Position numbers and translations under genes: made by a program
Notes under the pieces: generated by a model
Told to the model about the DNA's origin: nothing
Databases searched by the model: none
What the model saw: only the letters and a program-made list of their open reading frames with translations
In this document: in pieces, positions 6,369 through 12,639 of the stretch
How positions within the stretch are numbered: the first letter of the stretch is position 1
Layout of the letters: every line of letters starts with the position of its first letter
Origin: an uncultured virus (IMG/VR IMGVR_UViG_3300044630_007810)
Lineage: Duplodnaviria; Heunggongvirae; Uroviricota; Caudoviricetes
Length of the DNA stretch: 20,000 nucleotides
IMG/VR virus record: IMGVR_UViG_3300044630_007810
Strand: one strand, 5' to 3'

Positions 6369-6458
6369 TGGCGGTGAGAAAGGGATTTGAACCCTTGGTA
6401 ATATTTCTACTACGTTCCCTTAGCAAGGGAGTGCTTTAAACCACTCAGCCATCTCACC
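6369..6458 (-). tRNA. tRNA-Ser(GCU)
   Basis: GGTGAGA/TCTCACC acceptor, anticodon loop TTGCTAA, long variable arm, TTCAAAT T-loop, GCCA end. Confidence 0.93.
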
Positions 6459-6460
6459 AA

Positions 6461-6528
6461 TGGTGGATGCGTGAGGGATCGAACCTCATTCCACGACAAG
6501 CGTCATGTCGAAACCAGTAATCGCACCC
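6461..6528 (-). ncRNA. Miniature tmRNA-like RNA (tRNA-like domain only, no tag reading frame)
   Basis: GGGUGCG-AUUACUGGUUUCGA-CAUGAC-GCUU-GUCGUG-GAA-UGAGG-UUCGAUC-CCUCA-CGCAUCC-ACCA. It has G3.U70, a stemless tmRNA-type D-loop, a 3-nt GAA linker and no anticodon loop. Confidence 0.8.
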
Positions 6529-7026
6529 TTAATTTTCTTTATTGAACATAACATAGTTATGAACAGTAACTAAATAATCTTCAGCAATAGCAAGCTTTCC
6601 CTGCATCCATGTTTCTGTAAGATTTTCTTGAACTTTAAGGTCATTCAAGGCATTTAAAATATTATCTGCATGAGCTTTAATTGATGTGATTGAACCAACT
6701 GCCATTTCATAAAGATCTTTATTTGTTTCTTGAAGTTCTTGTTCTGGAGTTTCTTGTTCCATTTCTGGAGCATTCATATCAATTTCTTGAGCTTGTGATA
6801 TCCCAACTTTATGCTCTTTTTCTTTTAGCTCTGAAAAAATAAGAAATTCTTCTCCGTCGATTTCGCCAACGATAGAAGCTTCTGATTTTGATTCGTCAAA
6901 TTGAGTATAGCAAATTGCGACACGTTGTTTATTATCTTCAAATTTTGGATCTTTTGCTACTTCAGATACACAACGACCAATAAAGTCGCTCTTCTTTTCT
7001 TTATTTTTTGGTTTTGGTAAAGGCAT
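6529..7026 (-). CDS. Conserved-looking phage hypothetical protein
   Basis: 165 aa. The N-terminal MPLPKP..E...FIGRC...QR.AICY motif and the C-terminal WMQGKLAIAEDYL helix are familiar from phage hypotheticals. GTGTAA lies upstream. Confidence 0.75.
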   Translation of the reverse strand: MPLPKPKNKEKKSDFIGRCVSEVAKDPKFEDNKQRVAICYTQFDESKSEASIVGEIDGEEFLIFSELKEKEHKVGISQAQEIDMNAPEMEQETPEQELQETNKDLYEMAVGSITSIKAHADNILNALNDLKVQENLTETWMQGKLAIAEDYLVTVHNYVMFNKEN

Positions 7027-7060
7027 CGTTTTGTCTATTTTAGATTATTACACTAAAAAT

Positions 7061-7151
7061 TGGCGGGTAGAGTAGGATTCGAACCCACGGAGGATTCATC
7101 ACCCTCTCAGATTTTCAAGATCTGCACAATAAACCGCTCTGTCATCTACCC
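7061..7151 (-). tRNA. tRNA-Ser(UGA)
   Basis: GGGTAGA/TCTACCC acceptor, CAGAT-CTTGAAA-ATCTG anticodon arm, long variable arm, GCCA end. Confidence 0.93.
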
Positions 7152-7177
7152 ATTTAACAATACTTATTATAATAAAA

Positions 7178-7303
7178 TTATCCTTGCCCTTTATATTTTT
7201 TTCTATAATTTTTAGATTGTTTCAAATGAGAAGTTTTGCTTTTTGCATGAACTCCAGGACGTTTAATTTTCTTGTGTTTTGTTTTTTGTTCTTTTTTGTT
7301 CAT
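7178..7303 (-). CDS. 41-aa highly basic peptide (not in the ORF track)
   Basis: MNKKEQKTKHKKIKRPGVHAKSKTSHLKQSKNYRKKYKGQG* fills the gap between two tRNAs. Confidence 0.7.
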   Translation of the reverse strand: MNKKEQKTKHKKIKRPGVHAKSKTSHLKQSKNYRKKYKGQG

Positions 7304-7315
7304 ATTGTTAGAAAT

Positions 7316-7391
7316 TGGTCCTCCATACTGGACTTGAACCAGTAACTTTCCCCTTATAAAGAAGATACTCTACCGATTGAGTTAATGGAGG
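7316..7391 (-). tRNA. tRNA-Ile(UAU)
   Basis: CCTCCAT/ATGGAGG acceptor, TCTTC-TTTATAA-GGGGA anticodon arm (two G.U pairs), TTCAAGT T-loop, ACCA end. Confidence 0.85.
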
Positions 7392-7437
7392 ATGTTTTTG
7401 TAGTTCACTTTTTATTATGAATGTGTATATAATATAT

Positions 7438-7962
7438 ATGGACTATGAATTATTACAAGAATTAATTTCAAAAAACTTATCAATTGCAAAAATAGCTGAA
7501 GAATTAAATTGTAGCAAAACAAATATAAGATATTGGTTAAGGAAGCACGGACTTAATACAAATTTTACATTTTTAAAAGCTGAATTAAAAGATTGCCCTA
7601 ATGGAGAAAGTTGCAAAATTTGTTCAAATAACTTAACTGGTCATCAGAGATTTTTTTGTAGTAAAAAATGTAGAATTAAAAGTAAAAATCCAAATACAGT
7701 AGAAAGACAAAAGAGAATAAGCAAGGATAGAAAACTTGAATTAATCAAAATGAGTGGTGGTTGCTGTGAGGCTTGTGGATATAATAAAAATTATTCTGCT
7801 CTTCAATTTCATCATTTAGATCCATCAAATAAAACTTTTAATATTGACGCGAGAATGCTGTCTAATACAAAATGGGATTCTATTATAAAGGAATGGAGAA
7901 AATGTAAGTTACTATGCGCAAATTGTCATTTTGAAATACATAATCCAGAAAATATTATTTAA
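7438..7962 (+). CDS. HNH endonuclease with N-terminal HTH and zinc-ribbon; start probably 7438 rather than 7417
   Basis: HTH-like SIAKIAEELNCSKTNIRYWL; CKIC..FCSKKC; CEACG..LQFHHLD...LLCANCHFEIH. Confidence 0.85.
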   Translation: MDYELLQELISKNLSIAKIAEELNCSKTNIRYWLRKHGLNTNFTFLKAELKDCPNGESCKICSNNLTGHQRFFCSKKCRIKSKNPNTVERQKRISKDRKLELIKMSGGCCEACGYNKNYSALQFHHLDPSNKTFNIDARMLSNTKWDSIIKEWRKCKLLCANCHFEIHNPENII

Positions 7963-7967
7963 AATAA

Positions 7968-8039
7968 TAGGGGCGGTGGGACTTGAACCCACACTCCATC
8001 AATTATGAGTTGATCGCTTCACCTTTAAGCTACACCCCT
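7968..8039 (-). tRNA. tRNA with CAU anticodon (elongator Met or lysidine-type Ile2), no encoded CCA
   Basis: AGGGGTG/CGCCCCT acceptor, ATCAA-CTCATAA-TTGAT arm, TTCAAGT T-loop. Confidence 0.88.
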
Positions 8040-8053
8040 GTTTTTTTATAAAA

Positions 8054-8131
8054 TGGTACGCGGAATGGGATTCGAACCCATACTGTAGTGATTTTAAGTC
8101 ACTTGTCTCCTACCAGTTGGACTACCCGCGC
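8054..8131 (-). tRNA. tRNA-Leu(UAA) with a short variable loop
   Basis: GCGCGGG/TCCGCGT acceptor, AGTGA-CTTAAAA-TCACT arm, 5-nt variable region ACAGT, ACCA end. Confidence 0.9.
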
Positions 8132-8149
8132 ATTCTCGACTGTGAAATT

Positions 8150-8177
8150 AGTATAACACACATTCACTTGGGGTCAA
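8150..8177 (-). promoter_or_regulatory. Sigma70-type promoter for the downstream half of the tRNA array
   Basis: TTGACC-16 nt-TATACT with an extended -10 (TGT TATACT), 18 nt upstream of tRNA-Leu. Confidence 0.65.
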
Positions 8178-8221
8178 GATAAATTTCAGAAAGTTTTCGA
8201 ATTAAAAGTGTAAATAAATGG

Positions 8222-9565
8222 ATGGCAGATCTCTATACTTTCCAAAACCTTGGTCAATTGTCGCATACAGCAGGACAAATTCCTTTTGTTTACGATAGGG
8301 CAAATGATCATTATAGACCATTAGAGCAGAAAGATTTGAGTTTTGCCAATTCTGCTGGTTCTACTTCTTTTGATGCGTTTGGTCGCATGAGAACTTCTTC
8401 TCCATTGACCTTATTTGATTCAAGTCATAGATATGCTGACAATGGTCTTTGGTCTACAGCTAGTGGTTTTAGTGGCAGTGGTGTTTTCAATCAAAATCAA
8501 GGATTAGTTGATTTAACTGTAACAAATACTTCTGGTTCATTCGTTACTAGAGAAACAACAAAAGTTTTTGCTTATCAACCAGGAAAATCATTATTAAATT
8601 TAAGTACTTTTGTAATGTCACCAGCAAAAACTGGTTTAAGACAAAGAGTTGGTTACTATGGTGCTGATAATGGTTTCTATTTAGAACAAGCAGACAGTAG
8701 TGTATCTTTTGTAAAAAGAAGTGTTGTAACAGGTTCTTTAGTAAACACACCTGTTTTACAAGCTAATTGGAATGGGGATAAACTTGATGGATCTGGTCCT
8801 TCAGGATTAACTCTTGATCTCACCAACGCACAAATTCTTTGGATGGATCTTGAGTGGTTAGGAGTGGGATCTGTAAGAATGGGGTTTGTTATTAATGGAC
8901 AATTTATTCTTTGTCATACTTTTCATCACGCCAATATTATTGCTTCTACTTATATTACTACAGCTTCTTTGCCGCTGAGATATGAAATAGCAAATACTGC
9001 CGCAACTATTGGCAGCAGTACATTGAAACAAATTTGTTCTTCTGTGATTTCAGAAGGTGGATATGAATTGAGAGGATTACAACAAGCAGTAAGTCAAGAT
9101 GTCAATGCCCCTTACGAGTTAATAACAACGGTAAATACTGACTACCCAGTAATTACTATTAAATTAAAGTCAACAAGATTAGACGCAATAGTAATTCTTA
9201 CTGCGCTTTCTATTTTACCAACAACAACTGGTAATTTTAAATGGAAAATAATTGCAAACGGGACAACAAGTGGTGGAAGTGGAGACTGGATTTCTGCTGG
9301 AGCAAATTCTGCTGTAGAATATAAAAAAGATGCCACAACCATTTCTGGTGGTAGAATACTTGCCGCAGGATTTATTAGCCAAACAAATCAAGCAAGTGCA
9401 ACTCTCGACATCTTAAAAGAAGCTCTTTTTAAATTCCAATTAGAAAGAAATGGTTTAACTGGTGCTGCTCAAGAATTAACATTAGCTATTTCTGCTGGAA
9501 CCGCAACAGGAGGAAGTCCTGCAAAAGTTCTTGCCTCAATGGATTGGGAAGAAATAAGTAGATAA
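8222..9565 (+). CDS. Probable virion structural protein (beta-rich) lying antisense within the tRNA array
   Basis: 447 aa, Ser/Thr/Gly-rich. The DAFGR.R.S.P.TLFDS, YQPGKS and EWLGVGSVR motifs are familiar from large-phage proteins. GTGTAA lies 8 nt before the ATG. Confidence 0.65.
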   Translation: MADLYTFQNLGQLSHTAGQIPFVYDRANDHYRPLEQKDLSFANSAGSTSFDAFGRMRTSSPLTLFDSSHRYADNGLWSTASGFSGSGVFNQNQGLVDLTVTNTSGSFVTRETTKVFAYQPGKSLLNLSTFVMSPAKTGLRQRVGYYGADNGFYLEQADSSVSFVKRSVVTGSLVNTPVLQANWNGDKLDGSGPSGLTLDLTNAQILWMDLEWLGVGSVRMGFVINGQFILCHTFHHANIIASTYITTASLPLRYEIANTAATIGSSTLKQICSSVISEGGYELRGLQQAVSQDVNAPYELITTVNTDYPVITIKLKSTRLDAIVILTALSILPTTTGNFKWKIIANGTTSGGSGDWISAGANSAVEYKKDATTISGGRILAAGFISQTNQASATLDILKEALFKFQLERNGLTGAAQELTLAISAGTATGGSPAKVLASMDWEEISR

Positions 9566-9568
9566 AAA

Positions 9569-9641
9569 TAGGGAGTGAGGGATTCGAACCCCCGACATTC
9601 TGCGTGTAAAGCAGACGCAACTACCGCTGTGCTAACTCCCC
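9569..9641 (-). tRNA. tRNA-Val(UAC), no encoded CCA
   Basis: GGGGAGT/ACTCCCT acceptor, TCTGC-TTTACAC-GCAGA arm, TTCGAAT T-loop. Confidence 0.92.
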
Positions 9642-9643
9642 TT

Positions 9644-9717
9644 TGGACGCACGTTCCAGTAACGCTCTGGACTATGCGGTTTTGCAGACCACTGCATGAC
9701 TTCTCTGCCAACGTGCG
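9644..9717 (-). tRNA. tRNA-Cys(GCA) with a non-canonical T-loop
   Basis: CGCACGT/ACGTGCG acceptor, GTGGT-CTGCAAA-ACCGC arm, U73 discriminator + CCA, T-loop AGCGTTA. Confidence 0.82.
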
Positions 9718-9722
9718 AAAAG

Positions 9723-9796
9723 TGGTGGAGAAGGAGGAAATCGAATCCTCAATTGAAGCTTGCAAAGCTACCGTTTTACCATTAAACTACATCCCC
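9723..9796 (-). tRNA. tRNA-Ala(UGC)
   Basis: G3.U70, loop TTTGCAA, TTCGATT T-loop, ACCA end; one U.U mismatch each in the acceptor and anticodon stems. Confidence 0.88.
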
Positions 9797-9800
9797 TAAA

Positions 9801-9872
9801 TCGGGTAATTGAGAATCGAACTCAACTAAACTTGCTCCCAAAGCAAGCGCCTCGCCAGTCGGCCTTTACCCG
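9801..9872 (-). tRNA. tRNA-Pro(UGG), no encoded CCA
   Basis: CGGGTAA/TTACCCG acceptor, CTTGC-TTTGGGA-GCAAG arm, TTCGATT T-loop. Confidence 0.88.
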
Positions 9873-10405
9873 ATAAAATTATTTTTAAAGTTTTTCACAT
9901 ATTCATCCACTTTATCTATTATAAGATTTGAATATTTACTATGTATATATTGATGATGTGTTGGACATAATGGAACCAAATTTATAGGATCATTATCTTT
10001 ATGATTTTTATTATAATGATGGACAGTAACTATTTTGTCTTCATCACAAACCACACATTTTTTTTCATGATATAAAAAACAAGTAGATCTATATGCATTT
10101 TTATTCCAATTGCCGTGTTTTTCACCAGATCTAAAAAAAGTATTTGAACATGAATATGAACAAGTTGTTTTTTCTCTTCGATGATTTTTTTGAGTTATAA
10201 ATTCTAAATCACAAACTGGACAAATTTTTTTAACAAATGGGTATTTAGTTTGGTTAAACTTTAGATTAAAATGAGAAATATCAAAATTATTATCTTTAAT
10301 AATTTTATTTACCTTGCGTATGCTAGATCCATTAACTGGTAAATTGAGTTTTCTACAGACATCAGATTTTGAATGACTCGATTGAATTATTTTTTTCAAA
10401 TCCAT
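9866..10405 (-). CDS. HNH endonuclease with zinc-ribbon
   Basis: CPVC..TCSYSC; CVVC..VTVHH...N...NLVPLCPTHHQYIH. Confidence 0.85.
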   Translation of the reverse strand: MDLKKIIQSSHSKSDVCRKLNLPVNGSSIRKVNKIIKDNNFDISHFNLKFNQTKYPFVKKICPVCDLEFITQKNHRREKTTCSYSCSNTFFRSGEKHGNWNKNAYRSTCFLYHEKKCVVCDEDKIVTVHHYNKNHKDNDPINLVPLCPTHHQYIHSKYSNLIIDKVDEYVKNFKNNFIG

Positions 10406-10488
10406 ATAATTATATACATTTTATTATCGTAATAGTGAAATTTGAATTCCAAATGCAATATTCTACCAAGTTTAATTTTATTTAAAAA

Positions 10489-10562
10489 TGGAGGCCATTG
10501 ACAGAATCGAACTGTCATCCGACGATTACAAATCGCCCGTTTTACCATTAAACTAAACGGCC
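10489..10562 (-). tRNA. tRNA-Thr(UGU)
   Basis: GGCCGTT/AATGGCC acceptor, GGCGA-TTTGTAA-TCGTC arm, TCCA end. Confidence 0.9.
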
Positions 10563-10564
10563 TA

Positions 10565-10639
10565 TGGCTCCGATTCGTGGGATCGAACCACGGACCCAGC
10601 GATTAACAGTCGCTTGCTCTGCCTCTGAGCTAAATCGGA
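10565..10639 (-). tRNA. tRNA-Asn(GUU)
   Basis: TCCGATT/AATCGGA acceptor, AGCGA-CTGTTAA-TCGCT arm, GCCA end. Confidence 0.95.
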
Positions 10640-10650
10640 GTTAAAAATAC

Positions 10651-10788
10651 TTTCTATTGCTGAAGAAGCTTTGGTCTTAAAGACACCACTCGTTTATCCT
10701 TCTGTCACTTTTCTGCTAGTAGACGCTCGTCGGAGATTTCCAATCTGCTTTCCCAACATACTTCGGGCGATAAAGACCACAATAGAAA
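10651..10788 (-). ncRNA. Unidentified structured RNA (~138 nt)
   Basis: Closing helices UUUCUAUUG/CAAUAGAAA and UGGUCUU/AAGACCA, with further inner helices; no ORF. Confidence 0.6.
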
Positions 10789-10806
10789 AAACATAGAAAA
10801 TGATTT

Positions 10807-10903
10807 GCCCATAACAGATTGCTGTCACACTCACCAAGGGCTGTGGCTATCTAGGAACCACACCTAGCTGCGTCATGTCTTTGCATTCGTGCATGATACG
10901 AAT
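10807..10903 (-). ncRNA. Unidentified RNA with two candidate H-type pseudoknots and a 3' hairpin
   Basis: AUUCGU/ACGAAU with loop UCAUG pairing to downstream CAUGA; CUAGG/CCUAG with loop UGUGGUU pairing to AGCCACA; GCCC/GGGC enclosing GUGACAG/CUGUUAU. Confidence 0.5.
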
Positions 10904-10973
10904 TGCGAGGGGAAGGAATTTAACCTCCACTCTAGACTATGGGCCTAGCGATCTCCGCATGATCCCTCTCGCA
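10903..10973 (-). tRNA. Non-canonical tRNA-like element with CAU anticodon
   Basis: Cloverleaf with UGCGAG/CUCGCA acceptor, GAUC/GAUC D-stem, CUAGG-CCCAUAG-UCUAG arm and GGAGG-UUAAAUU-CCUUC T-arm; C33, no CCA. Confidence 0.6.
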
Positions 10974-10978
10974 AAGTG

Positions 10979-11171
10979 TTTTCCCCACTACCGATTAATT
11001 AGCCAAGCGGAGCTTTGACCAATTTGAAGAAACACAGTGACTATTTCATCTTGGTAGCGACTCCAAGCCTACTTTAATGTGTGTCGGATTACATTTAGCA
11101 TCATCGGGTTGCTAACCCGCCTTTAGCCTTAATGCTCATTGTAGGATCATCGCCTACAATGGCAGGGAAAA
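10979..11171 (-). ncRNA. Unidentified multibranched structured RNA (~190 nt)
   Basis: Closing helix UUUUCCCUGCC/GGUAGUGGGGAAAA encloses six hairpins of 5-10 bp. The G.U pairs work only on the minus strand. Confidence 0.7.
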
Positions 11172-11174
11172 AAT

Positions 11175-11252
11175 TGGTTGCGGGTTTCGGAATTGCACCG
11201 AAACTACTTCTGCTTATGAGACAGATCCAGCACTACTACTGGTTGACCCGCG
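11175..11252 (-). tRNA. Initiator-like tRNA-Met(CAU), atypical
   Basis: CGCGGGT/ACCCGCA acceptor with C1:A72 mismatch, ACCA end, TCTGT-CTCATAA-GCAGA arm, T-loop TGCAATT. Confidence 0.8.
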
Positions 11253-11333
11253 ATTAAAAATTAGTAGGTTTATCTCAACCCAATCTCCCTTTCGGACCTT
11301 AGTAACTTCTGGTGTTTACTACCCTCAATTTTT

Positions 11334-11361
11334 ATTTTAATCAAATTTGTGTTTTTGTCAA
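11334..11361 (-). promoter_or_regulatory. Sigma70-type promoter heading the tRNA/ncRNA operon
   Basis: TTGACA-16 nt-TAAAAT directly upstream of the first structured segment. Confidence 0.6.
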
Positions 11362-11368
11362 CATAGAT

Positions 11369-11941
11369 TTACACAGAACCCAAAAAATATTCCCACTCTT
11401 CTCTTACCTTACTTGTGTTCAACATTAAAGCGGGAATTTCTGGCGCAGCAACTGGTTCATTTTTAACATTAAAAAATGGAAACTTACTAGCCTTTCTTGT
11501 GTTGCAAGGTTTACATGCCAATGTTCTATTTTCATGATCATCAGTCCCCCCTTTACTTTTGGGGTTGATGTGATCAATTGTTAAATCAGCGATTTTAAAT
11601 TTATTTAAACAATACTGACAAGTAAAGTTATAAATCTTTGCCATCTCCAAGGTGGTCAATTTCTTTTTCCTTGGGCGACGAAAAAATTTACTCGTTACGA
11701 TAATAACAGTTGGAATAGGCCAAACACCTTTAGCACTTCTCAATACAGGTTGATCTTCATAAAATTCAGCATCTTTATTCCATCTATCTAAAGAATGAAA
11801 AACATTATTGTTTTTATCGAGCGCAGTAATATGACCCTTCAACAAATGTGAGAATGCCGCTCTTGCTGTAATAGCATTGATTGGTTGCCAAGCATTATTA
11901 AGCAAAAGTGTTGTTTTACATTGCGATGTTACAATATTCAT
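11369..11941 (-). CDS. HNH endonuclease (McrA-like family with LxLN..xxP N-terminus); start probably 11941
   Basis: LLLNNAWQPI; TCQYC..LTIDHINPKSKGG...N..LACKPCNTRK. The ATG at 11941 overlaps the upstream TGA. Confidence 0.88.
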   Translation of the reverse strand: MNIVTSQCKTTLLLNNAWQPINAITARAAFSHLLKGHITALDKNNNVFHSLDRWNKDAEFYEDQPVLRSAKGVWPIPTVIIVTSKFFRRPRKKKLTTLEMAKIYNFTCQYCLNKFKIADLTIDHINPKSKGGTDDHENRTLACKPCNTRKASKFPFFNVKNEPVAAPEIPALMLNTSKVREEWEYFLGSV

Positions 11942-12639
11942 TTTCTTAAATATTTCCAATCTTTCCATTTGATAGAATTATTTGCGACCCTCCAACGACA
12001 AGTATCTTTATGTATATTTAAAGATATAGATGCTTGTAAAATTGTTGCATATTTAATTCCATTTATTTGTACTGGTCTGGCTGCTGGATTTTTACTACCT
12101 AATTTTGATTCAGATATTTTTTTTCTACTTTCTAGATTATGTTTATGTGGAAGTCTTTTTTTACCCAGTTCACTTAATTTTTTTCTAGTCTCTTTTGTAT
12201 GTTTCTTCCCATAAAATGGATTTTTTTTTCCAAATAAGTTTAGATGATAATTTGAATTTTTTATTTTTAATTTAGATTCTTCAGATAGAAAAACCCCCCC
12301 CTTTCGCAAAGATAAACATTTAGACCTTTCTTCTTTTAACTTTTTATATAAACGAGAATTTATATATCTTAAATTATTGCCTCTTGGATTAGCTATATTT
12401 AAAAAATGAAAAGCATGTAACATTTTAAAATAAAAAACTCCAGTTGTAAATTTACATAATAAATAATGGCACAAGTAATGCTCTCTGGCGGTTAATTTAA
12501 CAATATTAGATTTAATATCTTTTCCATTTAATGAAATTGGAATAATGTGATGTTTTTCCACATAACCAGAAATTATTTTATTTTTAGCATTGTCTATGAT
12601 TTTGTGATAAAGTTTATAGTATTTATTTTTTAAAAACAT
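11938..12639 (-). CDS. Free-standing HNH homing endonuclease with NUMOD3-like repeats
   Basis: EKHHIIP...N.V.LTAREHYLCH; NPFYGKKHTKETRKKLS. Confidence 0.85.
   Translation of the reverse strand: MFLKNKYYKLYHKIIDNAKNKIISGYVEKHHIIPISLNGKDIKSNIVKLTAREHYLCHYLLCKFTTGVFYFKMLHAFHFLNIANPRGNNLRYINSRLYKKLKEERSKCLSLRKGGVFLSEESKLKIKNSNYHLNLFGKKNPFYGKKHTKETRKKLSELGKKRLPHKHNLESRKKISESKLGSKNPAARPVQINGIKYATILQASISLNIHKDTCRWRVANNSIKWKDWKYLRK

Follow-up and report, generated by a model that had tools for sequence, protein, structure and literature searches.

Several enigmatic RNAs are known from the tRNA islands of phages, among them RNA C and RNA D of phage T4, GOLLD and ROOL. The T4 RNAs (the species 1 and 2 stable RNAs) are non-tRNA RNAs of unknown function that lie head to tail with the tRNAs of a T4-type phage, RNA D and RNA C standing at the end of the T4 tRNA cluster (AF158101). 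GOLLD and ROOL, as portrayed in the available part of PMC12286853, are also phage encoded, often found near tRNA islands and without a known function, and GOLLD is built of two regions with a linker between them in which tRNAs are sometimes found. Such linker tRNAs have been proposed to be cargo. Here we analyse a locus in a 20,000-nucleotide (nt) stretch of DNA, hereafter the window, from an uncultured virus (IMG/VR record IMGVR_UViG_3300044630_007810). On the minus strand of the window, in the middle of an array of tRNA genes, a tRNA-shaped module with the anticodon CAU stands between other conserved non-coding RNA modules: domain A upstream of it, and a trailer made of a candidate pseudoknot, two hairpins and a conserved tail downstream of it. 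We conclude that this module belongs with the tRNA shapes built into the enigmatic RNAs of phage tRNA islands and, judging from the comparison of related sequences, that it is very probably a tRNA mimic, conserved and functional, in a phage RNA locus of modular build.

By analogy, GOLLD is the closest architectural parallel, since in the locus described here folded modules flank a slot that can hold the tRNA-like module, nothing at all, or real tRNAs. The locus differs from both GOLLD and ROOL in that it matches no Rfam model and is much smaller (about 370-530 nt), and from GOLLD in that what is inserted is no real tRNA but a non-canonical mimic. RNA C and RNA D differ from it in that they share no sequence similarity with it and have no tRNA-shaped module between them: nhmmer searches of the T4 tRNA region with three modules (E<=10) left the trailer and the tRNA-like module unmatched, and domain A matched only at E=1.5, elsewhere.

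The module folds as a cloverleaf. Its acceptor stem (GCGAGAG/CCCUCGC) carries an A6xC67 mismatch and is followed by a single connector base, G8, with no base 9; then come the D arm (GAUC-AUGCGGA-GAUC), the anticodon arm (CUAGG-CCCAUAG-UCUAG), a variable region of 3 nt (AGU), the T arm (GGAGG-UUAAAUU-CCUUC) and a discriminator A, after which no CCA is encoded. The cloverleaf, both loops, the short variable region, the irregular acceptor base and the missing CCA had all been described in the original prediction and are all present, the module being placed at 10904-10972 on the minus strand. In tRNAs, U8, base 9, U33 and C56 are near-universal core bases. The module lacks all of them, yet it keeps the 'top half' formed by the acceptor and T arms. 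Scoring it as a tRNA, a check proposed at the outset, gave an answer with two sides. The module does match the Rfam tRNA model, with 27.7 bits (E=0.00093 in a 441-nt search), and ARAGORN does call it at -ps90 (90% threshold); however, the Rfam score lies under the gathering threshold of 29 and below the 47-67 bits of the window's own tRNAs, and ARAGORN makes no default call on the module in the window or in the related contigs L361, L381, L415 and L423. The copy in contig L179 reaches 30.9 bits, over the Rfam threshold.

The composite RNA had been suggested to act as an initiator-tRNA decoy. Bacterial initiator tRNAs carry a C1xA72 mismatch and, at the foot of the anticodon stem, a run of three G-C pairs. 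Identity features lend the decoy reading no support, as both are missing from the module, in which positions 1 and 72 are paired (G1-C72, or G-U or A-U) and the anticodon stem CUAGG/UCUAG has no run of three G-C pairs. The features of transfer-messenger RNA (tmRNA) are missing as well: the cloverleaf is unbroken, the third acceptor pair is G3-C70, and Rfam gives no tmRNA match at 10760-11200.

Relatives of the locus were collected from IMG/VR and from JGI metagenome contigs. An exact 31-mer of the tRNA-like module was found in 10 viral contigs, whose alignment delimits a conserved block of ~370 nt (11170 to 10803) with flanks that differ between contigs. Further pattern scans brought the collection to 20 unique full-length copies and 23 unique units running from the tRNA-like module to the tail. 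One of these patterns could not match knot variants without an extra U, and 23 of its 58 loci held a module; a 15-mer scan returned mostly loci without any module, and a looser viral scan (15 specified bases) gave no new member among the matches listed. Conservation was compared between modules in alignment A1, using the 18 sequences, out of 20 unique ones, in which every module is present. The tRNA-shaped module is the best-conserved part of the region, with 13% variable columns versus 37-47% in the neighbouring modules and a mean pairwise identity of 0.96 versus 0.79-0.85. The three intact versions of the downstream tRNA-Asn (those of the window, L192 and L210) are just 55-70% alike.

The changes that do occur in the module preserve its helices. 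Among the 23 units, pair 1-72 is G-C in 16, G-U in 3 and A-U in 4; pair 2-71 is C-G in 22 and U-A in one; pair 31-39 is G-U in 22 and A-U in one; and pair 50-64 is G-U in 9, G-C in 13 and A-U in one. Because these four pairs change and yet stay paired, the module is not a decaying pseudogene. The 7/4/5/5-bp helices of the cloverleaf are maintained in the relatives, one T-stem pair being broken in one sequence. The non-canonical core is just as constant, A56 and the unpaired A6xC67 being found in 23/23 units and C33 in 22/23, while the connector is one base or none (L423) and G18 is additionally lost in L415. Changes in the anticodon loop are limited to CC>UU in L343 (CUUAUAG) and to C34>U in one RNA-library contig (place 10941), and both variants yield UAU. 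This pattern, in which the acceptor/T half is kept and the standard tRNA core is not, fits a module maintained as a mimic. A sub-threshold 'pseudo-tRNA' can thus be the most constrained element of a phage array, and annotation pipelines that discard such calls lose real genes.

The composite RNA is larger than the coordinates first given for it. Its modules follow each other in the order domain A, short linker, tRNA-like module, knot, hairpin 2, hairpin 3 with tail, and module S (Table 1). Over the whole alignment, 17 of the 90 predicted pairs show changes on both sides, and domain A (~190 nt) has several helices that covary. The tRNA-like module is followed by the same trailer in 23/23 full-length units, and 15/15 unique 71-nt variants of it run on into the first trailer bases. 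What precedes the module, and whether it is there at all, varies. In seven contigs (L361, L371, L372, L381, L415, L423 and L434) the tRNA-like module, knot and hairpins stand behind a different upstream RNA, domain B. The tRNA-like module is missing from L197 (a 135-kb contig) and from L335, which have the same junction, GGGGAA-U-AUUCGU, and both it and the knot are missing from L178; L179-type copies carry a 60-nt insert directly before it. In L189 and L207, real tRNAs (His+Arg and Ala+Leu) lie directly behind domain A, and those of L189 are then followed by a module-S-like stretch. Module S is also found behind the domain-B units. Because two upstream domains, copies without the tRNA-like module and copies with real tRNAs occur, the block is a unit that recombines between contexts, with the tRNA-like module as an optional part. 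The proposal of one composite RNA stands to the extent that the tRNA-like module, the knot and both hairpins stay together as a group whichever of the two upstream RNAs, unrelated by their look, precedes them, but the trailer also exists without the tRNA-like module. Being small, modular and rich in natural variants (mimic present or absent, real tRNAs after domain A, two upstream domains), the locus is a tractable system, well suited to asking what RNAs of this sort do and whether the tRNA shapes within them are cut marks, cargo or decoys.

As to the flanking modules themselves, domain A is self-closing and multi-helix, belongs to no Rfam family and has divergent copies in L178, L189 and L207. 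Domain B is a conserved non-coding RNA of ~240 nt that takes domain A's place and has short motifs alone in common with it (UUCGGUUGGGAACAC versus UUCGGUAGUGGGGAAAACAC). In some contigs module S is replaced by what we read as a terminator-and-promoter-like stretch, and L285 has a chimera of module S and hairpin 3.

Contigs assembled from the RNA libraries of three metatranscriptomic runs (three studies) cover parts of the block, and they include a variant without the tRNA-like module and a variant with an insert before it. The libraries that contain block sequence are mostly labelled freshwater. Assembled contigs carry no information on ends, strand or level, and the libraries may contain DNA. 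In X3 the contig depth is higher over domain A (32.2 versus 2.7), and contigs stop at 10971 and near the anticodon loop; both may reflect the branching of variants, and we did not use them as evidence.

Directly 3' of the module, the original prediction had placed an H-type pseudoknot (PK1). The complementarity is present, S1 pairing 10898-10903 with 10885-10890 and S2 pairing 10892-10896 with 10873-10877. In dinucleotide-shuffled sequence, 2.99 H-type knots of 6+5 Watson-Crick bp with loops of this kind are expected per 20-kb window and 2 are observed (both strands, 100 shuffles); PK1 is not above chance in the single sequence, so the case for it must rest on the relatives. Among the 23 unique units, S2 is paired in every sequence and its closing pair is G-C in 9, A-U in 13 and G-U in one (11/9/1 in another alignment of relatives). 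S1 shows a one-sided change only, one of its pairs being U-A in 4 and U-G in 19, and a one-base deletion in 14 of the 23 shifts the register of three pairs, leaving 4-5 pairs with a bulge. On these alignments S2 can be taken as a proven helix and S1 as consistent with one. The third loop is A-rich in the variants inspected, and the lengths of the loops agree with those of a classical H-type knot. The knot is plausible: the expected covariation was found in S2, while S1 is kept in part.

The second pseudoknot, or switch, proposed for the trailer survives as a hairpin. The CUAGG/CCUAG stem of hairpin 2 changes in a compensatory way (CUAAG/CUUAG in L423), but its would-be competitor, the UGUGGUU/AGCCACA helix, is not kept: although folding of the window sequence by itself gives it as the minimum-energy structure, one of its pairs is mismatched in 20 of the 23 units and another in 11 of the 23, with 81.8% of cells paired, and we rejected it. 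The bulged hairpin predicted at the end of the element is supported, since the outer stem GCCC/GGGC of hairpin 3 becomes GUCC/GGAC in 3 unique units (C-G in 20, U-A in 3); its inner stems vary in sequence with the architecture retained. The z-scores of single-sequence folding are unremarkable (-0.55 to -1.77). Three other candidates were rejected. A pairing of the D loop with a loop of domain A (GCGGAG/CUCCGC) is not kept in the relatives. A small open reading frame (ORF) starting at the AUG of the tail (10811 onward, 35 codons; 47-aa TTG ORF) stops after ~9 codons or shifts frame in the relatives. A hammerhead-like look-alike (CUGAUGAG...CGAAA) occurs in a single variant of hairpin 3; it is not conserved, and its topology is wrong.

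Table 1. Positions in the window of the modules of the locus and of the features that flank it.
Feature	Positions	Strand	Basis or remarks
sigma-70-like promoter	11334..11361	-	TTGACA-16-TAAAAT, 11/12 positions; precedes first tRNA of the stretch; 100% identical in G001
tRNA(CAU), C1xA72, encoded CCA	11175..11252	-	ARAGORN; 3' end adjoins domain A
Domain A, folded RNA (UUUCCCUGCC ... GGUAGUGGGGAAA)	10979..11170	-	ends pair together; several helices with compensatory changes
Linker CACUUU	10973..10978	-	ACUUU/AUUUU also the left junction in the domain-B context
tRNA-shaped module (CAU; G8, C33, A56, A6xC67, no CCA)	10904..10972	-	Rfam tRNA model, ARAGORN -ps90, relatives
Anticodon loop CCCAUAG	10937..10943 (anticodon 10939-10941)	-	identical in 22/23 unique units
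Candidate H-type pseudoknot PK1	10873..10903	-	S1 AUUCGU/ACGAAU, S2 UCAUG/CAUGA, A-rich third loop
Hairpin 2, CUAGG/CCUAG	10851..10867	-	100% paired, compensatory changes
AGCCACA, proposed partner of hairpin-2 loop	10842..10848	-	pairing not kept; AUAGYCNCA resembles domain A AUAGUCAC
Hairpin 3	10807..10841	-	outer stem GCCC/GGGC, large 5' internal loop, inner stem UGACAG/CUGUUA
Near-invariant tail UAUGGGCAAAU	10803..10813	-	UAUGGG complementary to anticodon loop
Module S, conserved non-coding (…AUCGCCCGAAGUAU…AGAAAAGUGA…CUUCAGCAAUAGA)	10640..10802	-	extends to tRNA-Asn; ~160 nt
tRNA-Asn(GUU)	10565..10639	-	next ordinary tRNA of operon; ARAGORN and Rfam

Processing signals that resemble tRNAs are known from the mascRNA of MALAT1, from the t-elements of plant mitochondria and from the tRNA punctuation model. 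In these cases, a non-decoding tRNA shape lies in a longer transcript and is used by RNase P or RNase Z to set the ends of its neighbours; those systems are eukaryotic or organellar, and processing is predicted in the locus described here. The explanation of the whole that we favour, with a confidence that comes close to an even chance, is that the module is a non-decoding mimic in a modular RNA locus, handled by tRNA-end enzymes. As a tRNA mimic rather than a decoding tRNA, it would be recognised by the host tRNA-end enzymes as they recognise the flanking tRNAs. RNase P would cut at 10972/10973, and RNase Z or RNase E at about 10903/10904; the cuts would separate domain A from the knot-capped trailer, as the real tRNAs of the operon do, and the compact knot would be the 5' end of the released trailer. 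In L189 and L207 it is real tRNAs that come straight after domain A. This mechanism, taken specifically, is a tentative proposal that we hold at somewhat less than even, and the cut sites at the module borders are candidates. Several points weigh against it. A pure processing signal leaves the near-invariant anticodon arm and D loop unexplained, and the variants without the tRNA-like module indicate that separation of the flanking RNAs is not essential. The UU of the 5' leader can form pairs with A73 and A74, and the longer acceptor stem that results may hinder RNase P. RNA-library contigs bridge both borders of the module (X1 record 3, X3 record 12 and X7 record 14), so that either some molecules are uncut or the contigs derive from DNA. 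In addition, the low diversity of the module could come partly from recent recombinational spread and not from constraint.

A decaying tRNA-Met pseudogene in ordinary spacer would agree with the sub-threshold tRNA score and with the homing-endonuclease genes and broken tRNA genes that occur in these arrays. It is nevertheless very unlikely, since the module is the most conserved part of the region, its helices show compensatory changes, the trailer hairpins covary, and no relative has an ordinary, intact tRNA-Met at this place, whose presence there the original prediction had named as the mark of a simple pseudogene. Could the module be a working but atypical tRNA? It would then be an AUA-reading tRNA of the Ile2 type (CAU converted to lysidine) or an elongator tRNA-Met, matured by RNase P and CCA addition, with the knot and hairpins as a conserved 3' trailer. 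The cloverleaf is full and has T54, T55, A58, G18 G19, A37 and the discriminator A73, 3 of the 11 ARAGORN tRNAs of the window likewise have no encoded CCA, and the L179 copy exceeds the Rfam threshold. Moreover, the sole anticodon-loop changes (C33U+C34U in L343; C34U in the RNA-library contig) give UAU, an anticodon that would read the same AUA codon as a lysidine-CAU tRNA. We regard a working tRNA as unlikely, given G8, the missing base 9 (with no connector at all in L423), A56 in 23/23 and C33 in 22/23, and the silence of default ARAGORN in the window and in four relatives. The window also encodes a tRNA-Ile(UAU) and two other CAU tRNAs (ARAGORN), the module varies far less than a real tRNA from its own operon does, and it is dispensable in two lineages.

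The near-invariant loops, and a module that hardly varies as a whole, speak for another reading, in which the tRNA shape is an uncleaved ligand or decoy. It would either bind some host factor by which CAU tRNAs are read (the ribosome, a synthetase, a modification enzyme or an anticodon nuclease toxin) or dock its anticodon loop on the RNA's UAUGGG tail and so shape a larger particle. The bridging RNA-library contigs agree with an uncleaved RNA, and the same array carries another tRNA mimic, a tag-less mini-tmRNA. In the window, the loop CCCAUAG matches the tail (C/U)UAUGGG over 6-7 pairs, and the CC>UU change of L343 would keep G-U pairs. The tRNAs sometimes held by GOLLD linkers, as the available text of PMC12286853 describes them, offer a precedent. 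However, the pairing of loop and tail shows no compensatory change in the 23 units, and at its ends it has an A-C mismatch in 5 of the 23 and a C-A mismatch in 3; the GGG of the tail is also required by the hairpin-3 stem, which covaries; the tail is equally conserved in copies without the tRNA-like module; and, by a rough estimate that was not computed, chance alone would give a match of 6 bases within ~100 nt with a probability of ~0.05. Since the flanks differ between contigs, the gene neighbourhood links no partner protein to the RNA. We consider the ligand or decoy doubtful, and the docking of loop on tail an idea that the complementarity suggests. With similarly low confidence we put forward its widest form, a new class of modular phage RNA in which a built-in CAU tRNA mimic serves as bait or ligand for a host factor, or which is a self-docking, small analogue of GOLLD with tethered tRNAs. 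The self-processing trailer of the original prediction, that is, a ribozyme resembling that of hepatitis delta virus (HDV) and the theta ribozymes, fared worst. The position is right, a pseudoknotted element lying immediately behind a tRNA-shaped phage gene that has a CAU anticodon and no CCA: according to the available part of PMC10879173, theta ribozymes frequently occupy such a place, and tRNA-Met is one of the partners met most often. The HDV-like fold, which the same source describes in part, is a nested double pseudoknot (P1, P1.1, P2, P3 and P4) with cleavage before G1 and a catalytic C in J4/2. The simple H-type knot found here has no nested double pseudoknot and no P3/L3, P1.1 or P4; one base lies between the 5' strand of S2 and the 3' strand of S1, and seven bases with no hairpin lie between the 3' strands of S1 and S2. 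The first base after the tRNA-like module (+1) is A and not G. Ribozyme families gave no match, either in the window (E<=10) or in five relatives (E<=1). More than 80% of theta ribozymes come from human and animal gut phages, as far as the available part of PMC10879173 goes, whereas this locus is from freshwater. A self-cleaving ribozyme is thus extremely improbable.

Searches of known families and databases returned the tRNA shape and little else. Against the 4227 families of Rfam, the region 10760-11200 gave a tRNA match only (E<=10), five relatives gave nothing besides tRNA (E<=1), and no HDV-like or other ribozyme, tmRNA, GOLLD, ROOL or YrlA match fell on the element; the sole YrlA match of the window (21 bits versus 69) falls on two ordinary tRNAs at 10513-10616. 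A 21-base signature of the tRNA-like module had 0 matches in 185,579 prokaryote species genomes (one genome each). Against 50,697 phage records, neither blastn with 10640-11370 nor megablast with the whole window matched the element, and only a tRNA-Val was matched, in a Synechococcus phage. No description of this RNA was found in the literature: four motif strings had 0 matches in 6 supplementary files of PMC10690425, 3 further files being outside the search, and this catalogue of 8,495 structured RNAs from IMG/VR, available in part, may still contain the family. The available part of the paper on cyanophage S-CREM1 names only RNAs known to Rfam.

The source is a freshwater virus, uncultured and related to the T4-like cyanomyoviruses. 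A gene for a virion structural protein (8222-9565, +) lies mid-array on the opposite strand and is 63-64% identical to proteins of T4-like Synechococcus cyanomyoviruses; the S-RIM12 record is classed in Kyanoviridae. The nearest record, G001, is an 8.3-kb fragment with 90% identity over the element. In its default setting ARAGORN finds 11 tRNA genes in the window, all on the minus strand at 6369-11252, and 10 of the 11 exceed the Rfam tRNA threshold. The block is oriented in the same direction as these tRNAs, downstream of one strong promoter-like site, and no minus-strand terminator-like site was found in 10400-11500. With a single promoter-like site and no terminator-like site before the next tRNAs, the whole stretch is probably co-transcribed, the block, its modules and the tRNAs forming one transcript.

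Other observations concern the array itself. Four HNH or homing-endonuclease ORFs are scattered through it, at 7417-7962 (+), 9866-10405 (-), 11369-11968 (-) and 11938-12639 (-). The tRNA(CAU) at 11175-11252, with its initiator-type C1xA72 mismatch, is not listed by the Rfam tRNA model even at E<=10. In L184- and L197-type loci, the tRNA-Asn gene right after module S is truncated after its first ~15 bases (…UAGCUCAG) and AT-rich foreign sequence follows. At 6461-6528 (-) the array encodes the tag-less mini-tmRNA mentioned above, a 68-nt RNA limited to the tRNA-like domain (TLD-only), with an acceptor GGGUGCG/CGCAUCC that includes G3-U70, a tmRNA-like 5' part, a T arm and an encoded CCA; it has no reading frame and no pseudoknots, and it scores 47.9 bits on the Rfam tmRNA model, whose threshold is 47. 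Like the CAU module it is a short, conserved tRNA mimic with compensatory changes, but its ends are of the tmRNA type, whereas in the CAU module the anticodon arm is complete, CCA is missing and the tmRNA model finds nothing. In a viral scan the mini-tmRNA turned up at 28 loci; among the 12 unique sequences, the acceptor and T stems show compensatory changes.

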